In this document: piece by piece, positions 19,235 through 27,256 of the stretch
How positions within the stretch are numbered: the first letter of the stretch is position 1
Layout: each line of letters begins with the position of its first letter
Program-made: the position numbers and the translations under genes
Source of the DNA: a virus
Lineage: Duplodnaviria; Caudoviricetes
IMG/VR virus record: IMGVR_UViG_3300020592_000114
Coordinates: 1-30,122 of that record
Direction: 5' to 3' (one strand)
Length of the DNA: 30,122 nucleotides
The notes under the pieces: model-generated
The model's database searches: none
What the model was told of the DNA's origin: nothing
The model's input: the letters and a program-made list of their open reading frames with translations, nothing else

Positions 19235-21412
19235 CTATTCCTTCGCTGTTGCTTTGCGTTCGATGTTCACATCCGCCTGCCTTTCCTGGATGGCGGCGTT
19301 CATGCGGTTAGCCTCAGCCGTAAGCGCTGCCTCGAGCTGCATTTCCTCGCGGCGTAGCTGTGCATCGAGGATGGCGTTTTCCCTCTTCTGCTGGCGCTCG
19401 AATTCCGCCTTCTCACGGGCAACCTGCATCTCCATGGCGTGCTTTTCGCGCATGGCCTCCATGTCGAGGGCGTTCTTCTGTCGCTGCGTCTCGATGGAAG
19501 CGGCGGCCTTCTGCTGCTCTAGCTGTATCTGCGCCTGGGACTTCTGCGCCTCGATCTGAAGCTTTGCCTGCTCGGCCATCACTTTCGGGTCAGGCTGCTG
19601 CTGTTGCTGCGCCATCACCTGAAGCGTCTGCTGGTCCACCTCACCGAAGTATTCGTCGGGGTTGCGAAGCCCTGACATTTCGATCAGCTTGCGCAGCGTA
19701 TTCGCGTATTTATCAATGCCACAGACAGGGTTCATCGGCCCCGCCTGAGCGATGATTTGCTCCTGCTTGGCGGCGATCTGCATCAGGATGGCCGCATCAC
19801 GATCCCGAGAACCAGAGCCAAGGCCAACATTAACGTTGAAATCCATGTTGGCATTCCAACCACGCGGGTCCATCTCCACCCACTGATTGCGCAGGCGGAT
19901 CGTACGTGGGCGATCCTGGTTCTGAACTATCAACTTCAGGATGCAGCGGAAAAACCTCTTGAAGCCCATCTCAGCGAAATTGCGGGCGACAAGCTCTATC
20001 TTGGAATAGGCGGCAGACTGCGCCGCGTTGACCGCCGTAGCCGATTGGTTCTGCAACGCCTCAAGATCCAGCGCCATCGTGGAGCGGGACACGCCCGTCC
20101 TGCGCTCAATCATCTGGTCCATGTAATCGAGACCAGTCAGCGCCTCCTTGGCGATGAAGGGCACAACAGAAGTCGCCACCGCATTGCTGACGTTGCCCTT
20201 AACCCGGATCACATTGCCAATGGCTCGGTCGTACAGGGCGTCCGGGTTCTCAATGACGGACTCGTCAACTACCCGGTCGGGGATGTTGCTCTGATACAGA
20301 TTGTCGAGCATCTGCCGCAGCAGAGTCGTCTTAACGCGCTGGATATCTTCCGTATCATTGAAGACAGATCGGCCCTGCCAGCGGTGCGGCACGCGTTCGG
20401 CAACGAAATCCGTGAAGGGAACTTCGGTTTCCCAAACCTCCCAATCCAGAACCTTCGTGTTCCCTGCCCCACCGACAAGAACACGTAGCGTCTCTGCTAC
20501 CCCATCGCCATCATAATCGACCTTGATGTAACTCTCGATGATCTCAACTTCTTCCGTTGACTTATCGAGGCCAGGGGATGAGACAAACGCGCCAACCTGC
20601 TCCTTACGGGCGACATCAACCCGGTCAAAGCTCATCGTGTTGCCCCAAGTGGGGAGGTTATCCACCTCCTCACGGTCAAGGCCCATTTCAATCAGTTCTG
20701 AGCGGGTTCTCAGGGAACGGTGACCGACAAAACGCGCGTCCTCGATATCGGTGGCGCGAGCATCGATCAGGAATTCTTCAGGTGGAACAGCTTTAATCCT
20801 GAGGCAGCCATCCTCATAAGTGCGCTTGATCTTGACCGAATGGAGCAACACCGGCTGCTCGGAGCCATCAGGACCCGGCAAATAGCTTTCGCTGGTCTCG
20901 TGGGCCAGAACCTCGATGTCATCATCGTTCAGGAGAACCGCCATCTGGTCATCTGTGAGACCGGATAGCATGTGAGTCTCAACCTTCTCTGTCCGGTCCC
21001 ACCAGTGCTTCACGACACCGTTGGCGTGGAGCAAAGAATCGTGGAACACGTCCCAAAAGACCTGATAGCCGTCACACTCGCGCAGGACGATATAATTGAC
21101 GTAATCCGTGGCCTGGCGGGCTGCCTCCTCGTCCTCCGGCTGCTGGGGGTCGTATTGGCCCAGATTGTCAGCAGAAAAGAACACGCGCATGAGACCCGGC
21201 AGCATCCAGCCGATGGTATCCTGCACGTCATGCGTGGTGACGGATGAGCGGCCCTCTTCGCTCGGCAGATCACGCATTTCACCGCGATAATACTCTATCG
21301 CCCGAATGCGGTCCTTCTTGAAGTCAGATCGGTCGTATTCGATGGCGGCAGCTATCTCGGCCTGCACGAGCGTGCCGATCTCCTGCTCTGTCATACGCTT
21401 GCGCTGAGCCAT
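19235..21412 (-). CDS. Portal protein (podovirus type)
   Basis: About 725 aa after terL; P.LMR.F, A.QAT.YVNY, VPPEEF; Q-rich C-terminal coiled coil. Confidence 0.92.
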   Translation of the reverse strand: MAQRKRMTEQEIGTLVQAEIAAAIEYDRSDFKKDRIRAIEYYRGEMRDLPSEEGRSSVTTHDVQDTIGWMLPGLMRVFFSADNLGQYDPQQPEDEEAARQATDYVNYIVLRECDGYQVFWDVFHDSLLHANGVVKHWWDRTEKVETHMLSGLTDDQMAVLLNDDDIEVLAHETSESYLPGPDGSEQPVLLHSVKIKRTYEDGCLRIKAVPPEEFLIDARATDIEDARFVGHRSLRTRSELIEMGLDREEVDNLPTWGNTMSFDRVDVARKEQVGAFVSSPGLDKSTEEVEIIESYIKVDYDGDGVAETLRVLVGGAGNTKVLDWEVWETEVPFTDFVAERVPHRWQGRSVFNDTEDIQRVKTTLLRQMLDNLYQSNIPDRVVDESVIENPDALYDRAIGNVIRVKGNVSNAVATSVVPFIAKEALTGLDYMDQMIERRTGVSRSTMALDLEALQNQSATAVNAAQSAAYSKIELVARNFAEMGFKRFFRCILKLIVQNQDRPRTIRLRNQWVEMDPRGWNANMDFNVNVGLGSGSRDRDAAILMQIAAKQEQIIAQAGPMNPVCGIDKYANTLRKLIEMSGLRNPDEYFGEVDQQTLQVMAQQQQQPDPKVMAEQAKLQIEAQKSQAQIQLEQQKAAASIETQRQKNALDMEAMREKHAMEMQVAREKAEFERQQKRENAILDAQLRREEMQLEAALTAEANRMNAAIQERQADVNIERKATAKE

Positions 21413-21443
21413 CAATATTTCCCAATTTCAACCAGCAATAGGT

Positions 21444-21474
21444 AAAACCCCGCAATCCAATCAGATTACGGGGC
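21444..21474 (-). terminator. Probable intrinsic terminator between terL and portal
   Basis: CCCCGTAATC-6 nt-GATTGCGGGG-TTTT. Confidence 0.65.
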
Positions 21475-21497
21475 TGTCCATTCTCTTTCAGGTTGTG

Positions 21498-22934
21498 CTA
21501 AACCAGACCCTTGATTCGGGGAGCGGCAACAAACTTCCGCTTGGGCACGGTGGCGAAGCGGAGCATCATGAAGGCGTAGCGAGAAGCGCTGATCACGTCA
21601 TCGCGCTCTTTGACGATCACGCCATCCTTGCGGTGATACATGCGGCGTTCTTCAAGCCAGCTGACGCAGTTGGAGAAGACTTTCCATCTTCCCGTCTGCA
21701 TCCGGTCCAGCATGTCGATCACGCCAGCCTCGACGCCAAAGCCGCCATCGGCAAACGTCGCCTTTTCCGGCAACATCGCCAGACCTTGGGCCGCGTAAAG
21801 CTCCTTGTACTCGACACCGCTCTGGTCCTTGTCGCGGCGGAGGCCGTCATGCGGCCATGCCCACGGCAACCAGCCTCCCCACGGCTTCAGTGCAGCGGCG
21901 TGGATGACTGGCGTTGCATGTGATTTGCGATAATCAGCCACGACATACACAACGTCATTGTCGCGGTCGTGGGCGAGCTTCACCGCCCCGAATGGATGAT
22001 CATAACCGAAGTCCATTCCGCCGATCTGCGCCCAATGGTCGGGTATGGCGAATGGCTCGACCACAATCTCCTCTTCCGCCACCGGGAAGATGAGGCCGGA
22101 TCCAAGAGATGGAACACCCTTTGTTCGCGCCTCCCGCTCATGTGGCGGGTAGCTGGCAATGATCTTGGCCCGTTCTTCCTCGGTGTAGTGCTCCGCGTCG
22201 TGGATCGTCATCGACGTAACGGAGCGGTCCTCCGAATCCTCCAGAAGGTAACGGGCCACAACGCTCGACATGCCCTTGAGGGGCGTGAAGGTCACCATTA
22301 CCCGGCCCTTGGTGGCGTTGGTGCGGGTGATGCCCTCCATATACACATCTTCGGGCGGCTCTTCGTCAAACCAGACGAAATGCACCGTGTTGGCCTGCCA
22401 TTTAGACCGGCCCTGGTCATAGCTCTTGAAGTAGAGCGTGGAATATTCGCCGCTTACATGGCGCACCGTGACGCTGTCGAGAGCGTTTGGTACGCCTTGC
22501 CTGCGGGTTCGGTCCGAGATGCAGCGCTGCGGTATTGCGCCCGTGCCCCATTCCTCTTCGCGATCTGGCGGGCCAATAAGCAGGCGCTGGACGCCATCAC
22601 GTGTCAGTTCGCCAGACTCGGAACCAGCAAGCGCTACGATGGGGCCATCAAAACGCTGGCCCCTCCACCAGTCGGGATATTCCCCCGTAAGGTGCATGGC
22701 TGTTTCATAGGCTCCGGCCCAGGTTTTCCCGAGCTGGTTGCCCGCCATGAAAAGCCGCTCTCGCTGTGGCTTCTCGTGAAATTCCTTCTGCTTGGGATAG
22801 GGCTTGTAGTGCTTGAGCTTGTTAGTGCGCAGTCGGCGCTCGATCTCCGCCGTCAACTCCATCCTCTCCCTGAGAAGAGAGGAAAGGTCTGATGGTGGCG
22901 TCGAGCTTGCGGATGCGTTCAAGGAGTTGGTCAT
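21498..22934 (-). CDS. terL: Terminase large subunit (P22 gp2-like); true start may be near 22856-22862
   Basis: AGNQLGKT Walker A, WFDEEP Walker B, TFTP, GMDFG..HP and DD...ASRY nuclease motifs. Confidence 0.95.
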   Translation of the reverse strand: MTNSLNASASSTPPSDLSSLLRERMELTAEIERRLRTNKLKHYKPYPKQKEFHEKPQRERLFMAGNQLGKTWAGAYETAMHLTGEYPDWWRGQRFDGPIVALAGSESGELTRDGVQRLLIGPPDREEEWGTGAIPQRCISDRTRRQGVPNALDSVTVRHVSGEYSTLYFKSYDQGRSKWQANTVHFVWFDEEPPEDVYMEGITRTNATKGRVMVTFTPLKGMSSVVARYLLEDSEDRSVTSMTIHDAEHYTEEERAKIIASYPPHEREARTKGVPSLGSGLIFPVAEEEIVVEPFAIPDHWAQIGGMDFGYDHPFGAVKLAHDRDNDVVYVVADYRKSHATPVIHAAALKPWGGWLPWAWPHDGLRRDKDQSGVEYKELYAAQGLAMLPEKATFADGGFGVEAGVIDMLDRMQTGRWKVFSNCVSWLEERRMYHRKDGVIVKERDDVISASRYAFMMLRFATVPKRKFVAAPRIKGLV

Positions 22935-23217
22935 CCGTCATCTGATCGATCTGGTTCACATTGATGTTGAGATCGCGTGGGAGGATTGAGGCAACGACCT
23001 TCAGGTAAGCGTCAGGCTTCTTCTCACGGACTTCTCGGATCGCTGCCGGTCCATTCGCCTCCCAGTCTGCCAGCATGTCTTCCAGAAAGGCTTCACCGAG
23101 CTTGTTGCGTGAGCCCTTCGGACGCCCGGATGGGTTGCCGGATTGCCCAGGTTGCCAAGGCGCCTTCAGGTGTTTTTTAGGTGTAGGTTCACCGCTGTCG
23201 GTCATATAATCTGCCAC
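22822..23217 (-). CDS. terS: Terminase small subunit-like (DUF5681-type); start GTG 23217 or ATG 23205
   Basis: WQPGQSGNPSGRPKGSRNKL motif; overlaps the terL start. Confidence 0.8.
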   Translation of the reverse strand: MADYMTDSGEPTPKKHLKAPWQPGQSGNPSGRPKGSRNKLGEAFLEDMLADWEANGPAAIREVREKKPDAYLKVVASILPRDLNINVNQIDQMTDDQLLERIRKLDATIRPFLSSQGEDGVDGGDRAPTAH

Positions 23218-24279: not shown

Positions 24280-24645
24280 TCAGGACGAGCGCGGACCATT
24301 CAATGCTGGAAGAAGCCCATCGGTAGAACCGGCTTCCAGCAATTCCTCGAAAGCGCGGCCGAACGCCTCTTCGGCTTTCTCTCTCAAAAGTCTCTCCATC
24401 GGAGTCTCTGGCTTGTTCCGACGCTGATATTCTCGCTCTATCATGAGGAGCTGGAACTCATTTTCACGCTCTTGCCGAGAGAGCCCCAATTTATGCCAAT
24501 GTTGTTTGTACTCCGAGAGCTCTGAATCTCGACATATGGGGCAGTCGCAACTGAGCGGCATGAGCGGTCCTTCCGGCTGGTTAGGACAGAACTCGCCCGA
24601 CGCACATTCGCAATGCGGGTCAAAGCAGATGGTCCGAGGATGCAT
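24280..24645 (-). CDS. Hypothetical Cys-containing protein; start may be 24561
   Basis: CDCPIC motif, helical C-terminus. Confidence 0.55.
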   Translation of the reverse strand: MHPRTICFDPHCECASGEFCPNQPEGPLMPLSCDCPICRDSELSEYKQHWHKLGLSRQERENEFQLLMIEREYQRRNKPETPMERLLREKAEEAFGRAFEELLEAGSTDGLLPALNGPRSS

Positions 24646-24648
24646 CGC

Positions 24649-25209
24649 GCCGTCCTGATTACTGACCCCAGGAGCATGTCACAAGACAGAGGCCGACCTG
24701 GGGTGTACTGGTTGTCAGGACGGGCGCGTCAATCCAGAAGTCACGCGCCAAGTTGCCGGAGTACTGGCTTACCGGCGAGACACAGAACTGTTACCAGCCT
24801 GGAGCGTCCTGATTAGTCTCGCCCGCCGATACCATACGCTCAGGGTGTAGGTGCCTTCTGGAGTGTTTCGATGGTGGCGGGCGATTGGTGAAATGATTTG
24901 AGGCCCCGCATTAACCGGTCTGCGGTGGGTAGGACTGTATCGGTTGTCCGGCCTCTGGCGACCCCTACGGGGCATGATGCGATACGGCACCTGCATGACT
25001 GGCAGCCTTCAATTCGAAGACCTTTGACTATCGACGGGGCAGGGCCACTTTACGACCAGCCTCTGACTTTCGGCGTCGCCACCATCCGGTGACCACCGCC
25101 GTATCGCAACTGTTTGGGCGCACCGGGGTAACTGTCTCTCACCCGGTTAAGGCCGACCGCGACAGCCAAGGCGGCCAATGTGTACACCCAACTCTTACCG
25201 CTTACGCGG
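24649..25209 (-). ncRNA. Putative structured ncRNA(s) or late leader
   Basis: No convincing ORF; contiguous nested inverted repeats; G-U pairs and a GUAA tetraloop favour the minus strand. Confidence 0.65.
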
Positions 25210-25213
25210 AATC

Positions 25214-25242
25214 AAAAAGGGCGCTCTTCTTACAAAGCGCCC
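25214..25242 (-). terminator. Promoter-proximal intrinsic terminator (tR'-like)
   Basis: GGGCGCT-10 nt-AGCGCCC-TTTTT. Confidence 0.75.
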
Positions 25243-25256
25243 ATCATCAATTTCAT

Positions 25257-25285
25257 CCCCTAGCATATTCGTTGACTCATTGCAA
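25257..25285 (-). promoter_or_regulatory. Putative late promoter (pR'-like)
   Basis: TTGCAA-17 bp-TAGGGG (preceded by GC) immediately after the stop of the Q-position gene. Confidence 0.55.
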
Positions 25286-25292
25286 CCTACAT

Positions 25293-25934
25293 CTAGGCCG
25301 CTTTGGCGATTCTATTCATCCTTTCCACAGCATTTAGTGCCAGACGCAAATCGCCGATTAGCCCCTCAAGCGATTTGTTCTCAATCACAATACCCTCGAC
25401 GGCCATCATCCCCATTGGGCCACTTGAGAGGATGGCAGTGCGCATAGCTTTCCACCTTTCTATGGCACGCTTGTCTCGCTTCTCGCGATCCTCATCAAAT
25501 GGGTCACTACCATCGAAGCCGCTCGGGCCACTGAAGTCGCTCGCTGAGCGTGGGTTCCTAGAGGCGATGGCGAACCGGTAATTCTCATAGGCCTGTTGAA
25601 CCTCTTTTGCAGTCTCCAGGTGCTGCGCCGTGAACATCATCGGGTTGATCTTGTCCGCTCCATTCTTCCTTTTGAATACCTCGTGCAATTCCTTCCAGGC
25701 ATGAATGACGGAACCGTGTTCCTGTTTTCGGGCCTCATCCCATGACAATGACGGGTCGAGTTGGCGGCGCTTCCATGTAGCAGCCTCCATCATCAGCTTG
25801 TATTCGAGAGTCTTTTGTGCGTCCTCGATCTCCTTGGCCTCCGCTGATCTCGATATGCGCCCACTCTCCGTACGCAAGACACCTGTTTTATGTGGCCTCC
25901 CTCGCCGCTTCTGCCCCTTTGTCCTTGCTTTCAT
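25293..25934 (-). CDS. Putative late-gene regulator/antiterminator (Q position)
   Basis: Last early gene before the promoter-terminator pair; basic KRRGRP N-terminus; LRLAL..L-type C-terminal helix; function inferred from position. Confidence 0.55.
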   Translation of the reverse strand: MKARTKGQKRRGRPHKTGVLRTESGRISRSAEAKEIEDAQKTLEYKLMMEAATWKRRQLDPSLSWDEARKQEHGSVIHAWKELHEVFKRKNGADKINPMMFTAQHLETAKEVQQAYENYRFAIASRNPRSASDFSGPSGFDGSDPFDEDREKRDKRAIERWKAMRTAILSSGPMGMMAVEGIVIENKSLEGLIGDLRLALNAVERMNRIAKAA

Positions 25935-25954
25935 TATAACCCCGCCGCTTGATA

Positions 25955-26224
25955 TCAGGCTCGTTGATAAGCTGGTCTGCCGCCGTTGATCCGCTTCTTA
26001 CGAGCCTCTGCGCAAAGCTCATCCAGTCTGCGCGAGAGGCTTACGACCTTCCTGGGTTCGGGCAGCGTGTAGAACTCCAGGAATGGGCCGTTCGTGTCGC
26101 TAAGGCGGATTTGCAGGGTCCAGTCTCCGCCGTCCCTGAAGATGGAGTAATCGACGCCGCGCCGGTCGGCCCAATCAGCGGCTTCTTCCAAGAGAGATTC
26201 GAACCTGTTCATTCTGCCCCTCAT
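25955..26224 (-). CDS. Hypothetical protein
   Basis: Fills the gap in the operon. Confidence 0.65.
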   Translation of the reverse strand: MRGRMNRFESLLEEAADWADRRGVDYSIFRDGGDWTLQIRLSDTNGPFLEFYTLPEPRKVVSLSRRLDELCAEARKKRINGGRPAYQRA

Positions 26225-26228
26225 CAGA

Positions 26229-26729
26229 TCAGGATGACTTCGGGAGTTTGCGGCCCATGCGCCTCAGGGCCTTGAGAACTGTGGTGTGATCCCGGCCACC
26301 GAACTCCCTCCCTATCTGGACCAAGGAAAGATCAGGCCGCAGATCGTAGGCTAAGGCCAAGGCCTTGAAGCGTGCTTCGACCACATGCCGTTCCCGGCGC
26401 GGGCCCTTTATCTCCTGGACCGACACCCCATGCTTCTCCGACACCCGGCGAATTATTTCCGAGACGGGTATGCGGTCGGTAATGTTCTCTAAAGCGATGT
26501 TAAGCTCTTCGGCAGATTTAGCTGCGGGGCTAGAAATCAACGACTCCCTAATGCTGGCCCGGAGCTTGTCATTCTCCCTCTCCAGCTCGGAGATACGATC
26601 TCGTAAGGTGGAAAGCTCCACCTCGAACATCTGCTCCATTGCTTGCTTCTGCTTCAGCCGAGCCCGGGCGAGGAAACCGGGGGCGTAGCCGCTATTCGTT
26701 ACAAACGTGTCGTGATTGTAGTCTCTCAT
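26229..26729 (-). CDS. Phage protein with DnaA C-terminal (domain IV-like) HTH
   Basis: I...V....GVS..EI.G.RR....V.AR...SL.QIG..FGGRDHTTVL.A; TAATG coupling gives start MRDYNH. Confidence 0.85.
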   Translation of the reverse strand: MRDYNHDTFVTNSGYAPGFLARARLKQKQAMEQMFEVELSTLRDRISELERENDKLRASIRESLISSPAAKSAEELNIALENITDRIPVSEIIRRVSEKHGVSVQEIKGPRRERHVVEARFKALALAYDLRPDLSLVQIGREFGGRDHTTVLKALRRMGRKLPKSS

Positions 26730-27256
26730 TAGGCCGTCTCCGCTCGTCTCGCTTGATACCTTTCCCACACGTGCCTCTTTGCCTCGTACCGTCGCTCTCT
26801 CAGCCACCGAGCAAGAGAGGGGATGAATTTTGACCGCTCCCGATATGTCGGGTCGAATGAAGGGGGTAAGCTGCCCTTCAGCCACTCCGCGGCCTGGAAG
26901 ATCAGTTCGTGATCGCGCTTCGGAGCCTTTTCAAAGGCATCAAGAGCACTGGCGAAATCTTCGGCATCCTTGATGGGATAGACATTCCAGAGGCGCAGGA
27001 ACGCTGCTGGCGCTTGCTCATCTCGTTCGCAGCGAATGTCGTGGTCACGTATCCATTCCGGCTTGAACCCGCGCCAGCCGCGCAGGATCATCTCATCAGC
27101 CGCCTCGTTCGGATCTCGGCAGCGAGCGAACTGCTTAGCCAAGAGCCGCGCCGCGTGTGGCGTGAGCTTTGCCTTGATGGCCTTGCGGTGCTCTATGACA
27201 GCTTGCGCATGTTCTTCGTCTAGGACGGCGCAAAGCTCGGTGAGTGCATCCGTCAT
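26729..27256 (-). CDS. Replication-initiator C-terminal-like protein
   Basis: HRK..K..LT..AA...GW.GFK.EW and F...W..YP.K....FIP...RWL...RY patterns; ATGA coupling. Confidence 0.65.
   Translation of the reverse strand: MTDALTELCAVLDEEHAQAVIEHRKAIKAKLTPHAARLLAKQFARCRDPNEAADEMILRGWRGFKPEWIRDHDIRCERDEQAPAAFLRLWNVYPIKDAEDFASALDAFEKAPKRDHELIFQAAEWLKGSLPPSFDPTYRERSKFIPSLARWLRERRYEAKRHVWERYQARRAETA

Follow-up and report, generated by a model that had tools for sequence, protein, structure and literature searches.

Two uncatalogued RNA cassettes with complementary loops in a swappable late-leader array of a provirus

The window, the whole stretch of 30,122 nt analysed here, is a provirus that is 71% complete. 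On the minus strand its genes follow the order methylase, RusA, O-like replication genes, a 213-aa gene, small ORFs, terminase and P22-like head genes; the terminase is followed by P22-like portal, scaffold, capsid and ejection proteins, a tail fibre and an endolysin. A gene-free leader of about 560 nt holds the cassettes A to F and is bordered by a terminator on its 5' side and by the terminase/head genes on its 3' side (minus strand). The features are as follows, in the direction of the minus strand (related loci carry L numbers).

25293..25934, minus: candidate late-gene regulator of 213 aa in the position of lambda Q, the role being assigned by position
25252..25290, minus: putative late promoter region, from a -35 hexamer and a downstream hexamer in relatives, judged by eye
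25214..25242, minus: intrinsic-terminator-like hairpin with a U tract, found by terminator scan and kept in L005 and L042 at 85% identity
25198..25209, minus: short GNRA-type hairpin before slot A, occurring with its following linker in related arrays; exchange junction at 25209
25114..25191, minus: cassette A, three-way junction with a predicted loop-loop match of 5 bp, which two G-U pairs would lengthen to 8 bp
24978..25108, minus: cassette B, 11-bp closing stem with a multi-branched variable interior (by folding), 82% identical in L053 with inner hairpins exchanged
24962..24972, minus: short hairpin before slot C, seen in the sequence; a similar hairpin lies ahead of the C slot in L053 and L082
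24900..24955, minus: cassette C, three-way junction with a predicted 5-bp loop-loop match
24888..24899, minus: AU-rich single-stranded linker, a recurrent exchange junction and candidate cleavage site
24819..24884, minus: cassette D, long irregular hairpin (z -4.1) with related forms in L003, L004, L005 and L082
24715..24812, minus: cassette E, four-way junction with a 4-bp match between the last two loops; stems covary, loop match invariant
24665..24704, minus: hairpin cassette F (by folding)
24280..24658, minus: second copy of the opening and closing stem of E (repeats D2 and D4) around a 121-aa ORF, whose stop codon lies within the closing strand
19235..23217, minus: probable small-terminase ORF (labelled by position), large terminase and portal of the late operon (PHROG matches for terminase and portal)

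Some ORFs of 75 aa and shorter overlap the leader. They were rejected as genes because the 75-aa ORF has no PHROG match and indels in the relatives shift the frame. The leader has no Rfam match at the gathering score or at E<=10, and ARAGORN finds no tRNA in the window. In phage and plasmid collections BLAST found nothing that matched the leader, likewise for the array of L005, and a search of the leader DNA in 151 genomes yielded one terminator match and three chance matches. The longest antisense targets of the cassettes within the window are 10-11 nt, which is the chance level.

The 213-aa protein has 80 homologues, and the named ones come from Rhizobiales; its profile gave two matches in 401 genomes. 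It is all-helical with a confident predicted fold (pLDDT 86), and the family usually immediately precedes the promoter-terminator unit. In the relatives a canonical -35 hexamer directly follows the stop codon of the regulator, and a downstream hexamer is common to them and the window (both judged by eye); a promoter consensus scan in the leader region found none. Since no Pfam family matches the protein, since neither PDB nor viral folds do so at E<=0.001, and since the one ESM-atlas DUF6456 cluster at 0.90 is a lead only, it is from its position that we regard the family as a candidate new antiterminator. An alphaproteobacterial precedent for such a protein is GafZ (PMC11150451).

The initial annotation had described A and C as two three-way junctions with perfectly matching loops. 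On the minus strand, 25114-25191 (A) and 24900-24955 (C) indeed contain all the stems and both loop matches of 5 nt, CUGUC with GACAG in A and AACCG with CGGUU in C. The geometry given for A stands with regard to its stems except that the G at 25123 had been counted twice, in the 10-bp P1 and in the 5-bp P3, so that one of these stems is a pair shorter. A descriptor tuned to A and C matches the window at 12 places, counting both strands; of these only the two elements themselves, on the minus strand, agree with the minimum free energy (MFE) fold. Among 400 shuffles of the leader one descriptor match occurred in nine and two in none, the descriptor having been made post hoc.

The MFE structure of cassette A is the three-way junction (-33.6 kcal/mol, z -1.8; plus strand z -0.8; ViennaRNA). 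Folded alone, P1 and P2 have probabilities of 0.7-1.0 and P3 in the register of the annotation only 0.17-0.52; in a 370-nt context P1 and P2 fall to about 0.3. For cassette C the three-way junction is likewise the MFE structure (-21.3 kcal/mol, z -2.7), with all three stems at 0.96-1.0 when folded alone and at 0.6-0.95 in the 370-nt context. The plus strand of A folds more weakly and that of C differently, in agreement with the strand specificity that had been proposed.

The relatives point in the same direction. Single stem changes were found in P2 of C (A-U to G-U in L053), in P2 of A (C-G to U-G) and in the last stem of E, and in each case pairing is kept only as a minus-strand G-U. Contigs from the RNA libraries of two studies cover the leader and the downstream region and have nothing in 25236-26900, where the DNA runs continue; this pattern is a weak hint only. 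Pieces of 120 nt from the middle of the arrays showed no unusual stability or strand bias (mean z -0.56 sense and -0.70 antisense, n=40). We consider it very probable that these are real RNA cassettes.

Related loci were collected through homologues of the 213-aa regulator and through flank patterns, giving 40 array regions including the window. Many of the arrays were found by closing-stem patterns, and the sample is therefore biased to the closing-stem architecture. In the related loci rows of folded units are divided by short hairpins and AU-rich linkers; the closing stems are conserved and the interiors exchangeable. In a few relatives (L006, L013 and L014) no array is visible by eye. The repeated unit is a cassette with a conserved closing stem; the findings do not support the kissing three-way junction as this unit.

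Slot A illustrates this. Seven of its 12 clear occupants are junctions with two hairpin arms, and a loop match of at least 5 bp is present in two of the 12 (the window and L057). The sequence of the closing stem differs among the occupants and its pairing stays. In L007 the flanks of A and the first linker are kept, P1 is altered but paired, and the loops are 3-4 nt long with no match; L053, L073 and L119 hold an unrelated junction, L053 retaining B, C and D. The C slot is a plain hairpin in L082 and has other interiors in contigs of X8 and X10. Transfer RNA genes (tRNA-Met, -Thr, -Pro, -Arg and -Gln) lie inside or at the edge of six of the 40 regions, none of them in the window. The Rfam tRNA model matches within the A slot of L058 (31.1 bits) and, below threshold, in the B slot of L056 (26.6 bits), and a skipping-rope RNA lies at L082 330-442 within an array that has the slot order of the window. 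By eye, the B-slot interiors of L005 and L119 resemble the 3' hairpin of this RNA.

Close relatives exchange whole cassettes or cassette interiors at the linkers. The interior of A is replaced in close relatives, and fixed exchange junctions were found at 25118-25187, 25113-25209, 24894-25209, 24893-25104 and 24897-25189. The joints recur at the same junctions across contigs of several studies, with A or C replaced there; joints and loose ends at 24892-24905 occur in X4, X5, X8 and X10. Cassette C itself is unchanged in an X8 contig and in an X10 contig with 27 listed differences in the B/spacer region.

Smaller parts move as well, since an inner hairpin of cassette B recurs in the A-slot cassette of L007 (3442-3510). 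Cassette B also has a possible internal long-range pair of 5-6 bp that is kept in L053. One and the same interior lies within two different closing stems at L073 150-262 and L115 795-910 (both minus), from which it follows that scaffold and payload assort separately. The Brucella phage Tb (L130 1760-2200) carries an unannotated intergenic row of about 400 nt with the same cassette types, located between terminase-side ORFs and the portal and matched in part by 45 cultured phage records. At L059 895-986 (minus) C-like flanks surround two other hairpins beside a recombinase-like gene, which may be chance. From the pattern and model searches, the 18 metagenome matches to the A-slot pattern comprise six arrays, nine chance-like matches by eye and three duplicates; the five viral matches to the C-slot pattern are one relative, three coding regions and L059; and a model of cassette C gave two matches in 150 genomes, both coding and taken as chance.

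The family of cassette E (the window, L045 4024-4136 and L061 218-326) has three two-sided stem changes, a number equalled in 30 of 500 shuffles, and the four loop-loop pairs never vary; the loop match is kept at 75% identity. A large uncatalogued E-type family was seen in L085, L097, L098, L083, L099, L094, L016 and L043. Its layout is tRNA-like, with a closing stem, conserved first and last hairpins and a variable middle, and in eight E-type cassettes two-sided changes occur at 6 of 20 pairs, five of them outside the stem fixed by the search pattern. The E-type stem also brackets small protein genes. In the window the bracketed ORF has 121 aa, and X3 and X6 skip its unit by a joint between 24254 and 24714; in L119, downstream of 892, the bracketed gene has about 39 aa. 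A search with the E-stem pattern in 401 genomes gave 13 matches against eight in the control and was treated as chance.

We next consider the complementary loops. In all close copies the loops of A and C are invariant and no two-sided loop change occurs, and covariance models run against 66 sources detected no diverged copies with these loops. Given its loops, the match has p about 0.02-0.03 in C and about 0.14-0.16 in A (loop 3 of A taken one base off). As an ordinary nested stem the loop-loop helix of A lies only 2.7 kcal/mol above the MFE, that of C 7.2. With a first loop definition a match of 5 bp is reached by five of 28 junctions, A and C among them, against a swap rate of 11.6%; three of the 28 reach 6 bp against a swap rate of 2.6%. 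When A and C are left out, 3 of 26 junctions have a match of at least 5 bp, which is no higher than the swap rate of 11.6%. A second loop definition, applied without the window and L053, gave 14 of 486 sibling pairs at 5 bp (5-14 in 11 shuffles) and five at 6 bp (0-2 in the shuffles); not all of these matches are clearly genuine. Longer matches occur elsewhere, of 7 bp in L057 and of 6 bp in L085 and L073. Two further candidates were not counted: the L073/L115 loop match is covarying under one of two possible alignments only, and the 7 bp in L005 that had looked like a match by eye turn out to be nested within the MFE structure. Across the arrays long loop matches are therefore somewhat over-represented but far from general, and the excess is marginal.

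The expectation that loop complementarity would be preserved in homologues fails at the level of the slot, where the occupants in L007 and L082 have no match. From the window sequence alone the case for a kissing interaction is modest, the observation itself being real. We regard kissing loops as plausible, especially in C, but not as the defining feature: the kiss probably forms in C, and for A the chances seem a little short of even.

Several known RNAs had been named as analogues, and A and C were compared with each. The purine riboswitch and the SRP Alu domain share with A and C a three-way junction, two loops able to pair and a similar size, and A and C would work like these folds if they kiss. 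In A and C the junction is predicted and the loop contact is potential. There is no matching gene context. Rfam gave no purine riboswitch match, the junction consensus is absent by inspection, and downstream of A and C lie further cassettes, then small ORFs and the terminase, in place of purine genes with an expression platform. The U-turn consensus between the hairpins of the SRP Alu domain occurs in neither linker, and Rfam gave no SRP match. The phi29 pRNA shares the three-way junction, the two complementary loops, the tailed-phage origin and the position upstream of the head genes, whereas A and C have about half its length, their slot is dispensable and the provirus has a P22-like terminase motor. 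Instead of a phi29-type packaging motor we found the large terminase together with P22-like portal, scaffold and ejection proteins; a P22-like packaging motor is not known to need RNA. A and C thus belong to none of the three classes.

The reading as a repeated tRNA mimic was borne out in part. Strand-specific folds do stand in a modular row whose slots also hold tRNAs and tRNA-like RNAs; the kissing junction as the repeated unit was not confirmed. A and C lack the anticodon arm, T-loop and CCA end of tRNAs, and neither ARAGORN nor Rfam found a cloverleaf with anticodon and T arms in the window. Temperate phages carry tRNA genes in the late leader, and the relatives do so in the same slot; the window differs in having no tRNA and in having interiors exchangeable inside closing stems. 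Prophages like phiLM21 of S. meliloti often carry tRNA-Met (PMC12429752).

PMC5737381 describes skipping-rope, ROOL and GOLLD RNAs. Skipping-rope RNA (RF02924), of which the L082 array holds a member, is about 80 nt long with a multi-stem junction, and no self-cleavage is reported for it (PMC5737381). It differs in being a four-way junction, described with a terminator after it and as linked to nearby proteins, and not as a cassette in a swappable row; RF02924 has no match in the provirus at E<=1. GOLLD and ROOL are likewise prophage-encoded, found near tRNA islands and equipped with kissing loops, and the location of A and C is comparable as far as the provirus and the tRNAs of related regions are concerned. 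They are, in contrast, single RNAs of several hundred nt forming cages, whereas here a row of units of 40-150 nt is found; their Rfam models have no match, and A and C measure 78 and 56 nt. HK022 put is also a phage-leader RNA, of about 65 nt with two hairpins (PMC8632103), and differs in that our cassettes are closed by a third stem, lie after a terminator, are exchangeable and accompany a candidate protein antiterminator. A reading as integron attC sites was rejected, there being no stem of the length known for attC between the cassettes. We found no description of this cassette architecture in the literature searched, to which subscription journals mostly do not belong. The 10,006 viral RNA candidates of PMC10690425 include, in the tables accessible, none of eight array contig ids; single cassettes may be catalogued in its alignments.

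A and C are a real pair of uncatalogued RNA cassettes in a swappable late-leader array. We suggest that the upstream 213-aa protein would let the polymerase read through the terminator and that the row would be the first part of the late operon to be transcribed when the late genes switch on. Host nucleases would cut the AU-rich linkers, to judge from the preferences of such enzymes, and free separate cassette RNAs; release as separate molecules seems probable. The closing stem, in some cassettes together with an intramolecular loop-loop pair, would make a tRNA-sized, nuclease-resistant particle, the loop-loop pair being one lock on the fold among several. Against host defences that cut RNA, compact non-tRNA cassettes might serve as decoys or stand-ins, and host pressure would drive the turnover of the interiors. 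It is the slot common to tRNAs and the rapid exchange among near-identical phages that suggest a role in host conflict, and the decoy function is put forward tentatively. Phage tRNAs have been proposed to counter host tRNases (PMC10264068). The whole chain, a modular late-leader array at a tRNA site that is late-transcribed and cut into 55-80-nt RNAs serving as decoys against RNA-cutting defences, is possible and falls somewhat short of an even chance.

Other explanations have to be weighed against this one. One is that the cassettes are never released and work on the late transcript in cis, either by put-like antitermination or by holding up exonucleases and so shielding the late mRNA. The array is the first RNA made after the terminator, the double hairpin of HK022 put is of similar size (PMC8632103), and the E-type stem encloses small protein genes as well; but the phages freely swap cassettes, lose them or carry tRNAs instead, the row lies beyond the terminator that is to be read through, and a candidate protein antiterminator is encoded upstream. 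Action in cis seems unlikely. At the level of the DNA, the array might be a recombination scaffold whose shared boundaries let phages trade near-neutral inserts, with folding incidental. The joints at shared linkers, the same stem around RNAs or ORFs and the overall folding z near zero would agree with that. Changes that preserve G-U pairs and two-sided changes in inner stems argue against it, as do the tRNA and skipping-rope genes that sit intact in some inserts, and we consider such a scaffold highly improbable.

Two further alternatives concern the loops. The RNAs could be real and the loop complementarity of A and C a coincidence or an alternative nested fold, with no kiss. The p of about 0.15 for A and its nested fold just 2.7 kcal/mol worse, the loops of A and C without covariation, the marginal excess across the arrays and the slot mates without a match all speak for this, whereas the p of about 0.02-0.03 for C, the loop match that E retains at 75% identity, the 6-7-bp matches in other arrays that exceed all 11 shuffles and the 0 of 400 leader shuffles with two matches to the post-hoc descriptor speak against it; on balance the absence of a kiss in A and C appears rather unlikely. 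The loops could instead pair between molecules and build dimers, rings or cages of A or C, in the manner of phi29 pRNA or ROOL/GOLLD and perhaps at the portal. Loop 3 of C does hold a 6-nt palindrome (self-duplex -12.3 kcal/mol), and kissing loops mediate the multimerisation of ROOL and GOLLD, which come from prophages near tRNA islands (10.1101/2024.12.08.627333). Palindromic loops are, however, not enriched (17 of 336 loops against 18-37 in 10 shuffles), the terminase and portal genes are P22-like, viable relatives appear to lack A or C, and the elements are about a tenth of the size of GOLLD. The idea of a pRNA-like multimer thus received no positive support, and we hold it to be very unlikely.

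Returning to the array of separately acting cassettes, one may speculate, with a good deal of doubt, that temperate phages of Rhizobiales maintain an RNA-only late-expressed locus in which standard stem scaffolds take up unrelated compact RNAs, such as kissing-loop junctions, tRNA mimics and skipping-rope RNA, or even mini-genes, all traded by recombination and each set free as a decoy or inhibitor of a different host defence. Phage tRNA islands are already known for the structured RNAs GOLLD, ROOL and skipping-rope. At the present locus small uncatalogued folds are traded by the dozen within one defined slot, much as accessory genes are, and the natural deletion and swap variants make the roles of the cassette RNAs testable one cassette at a time. 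Should the cassettes be decoys, they would represent a broad class of counter-defence made of RNA; whatever their role, they provide new compact RNA folds.
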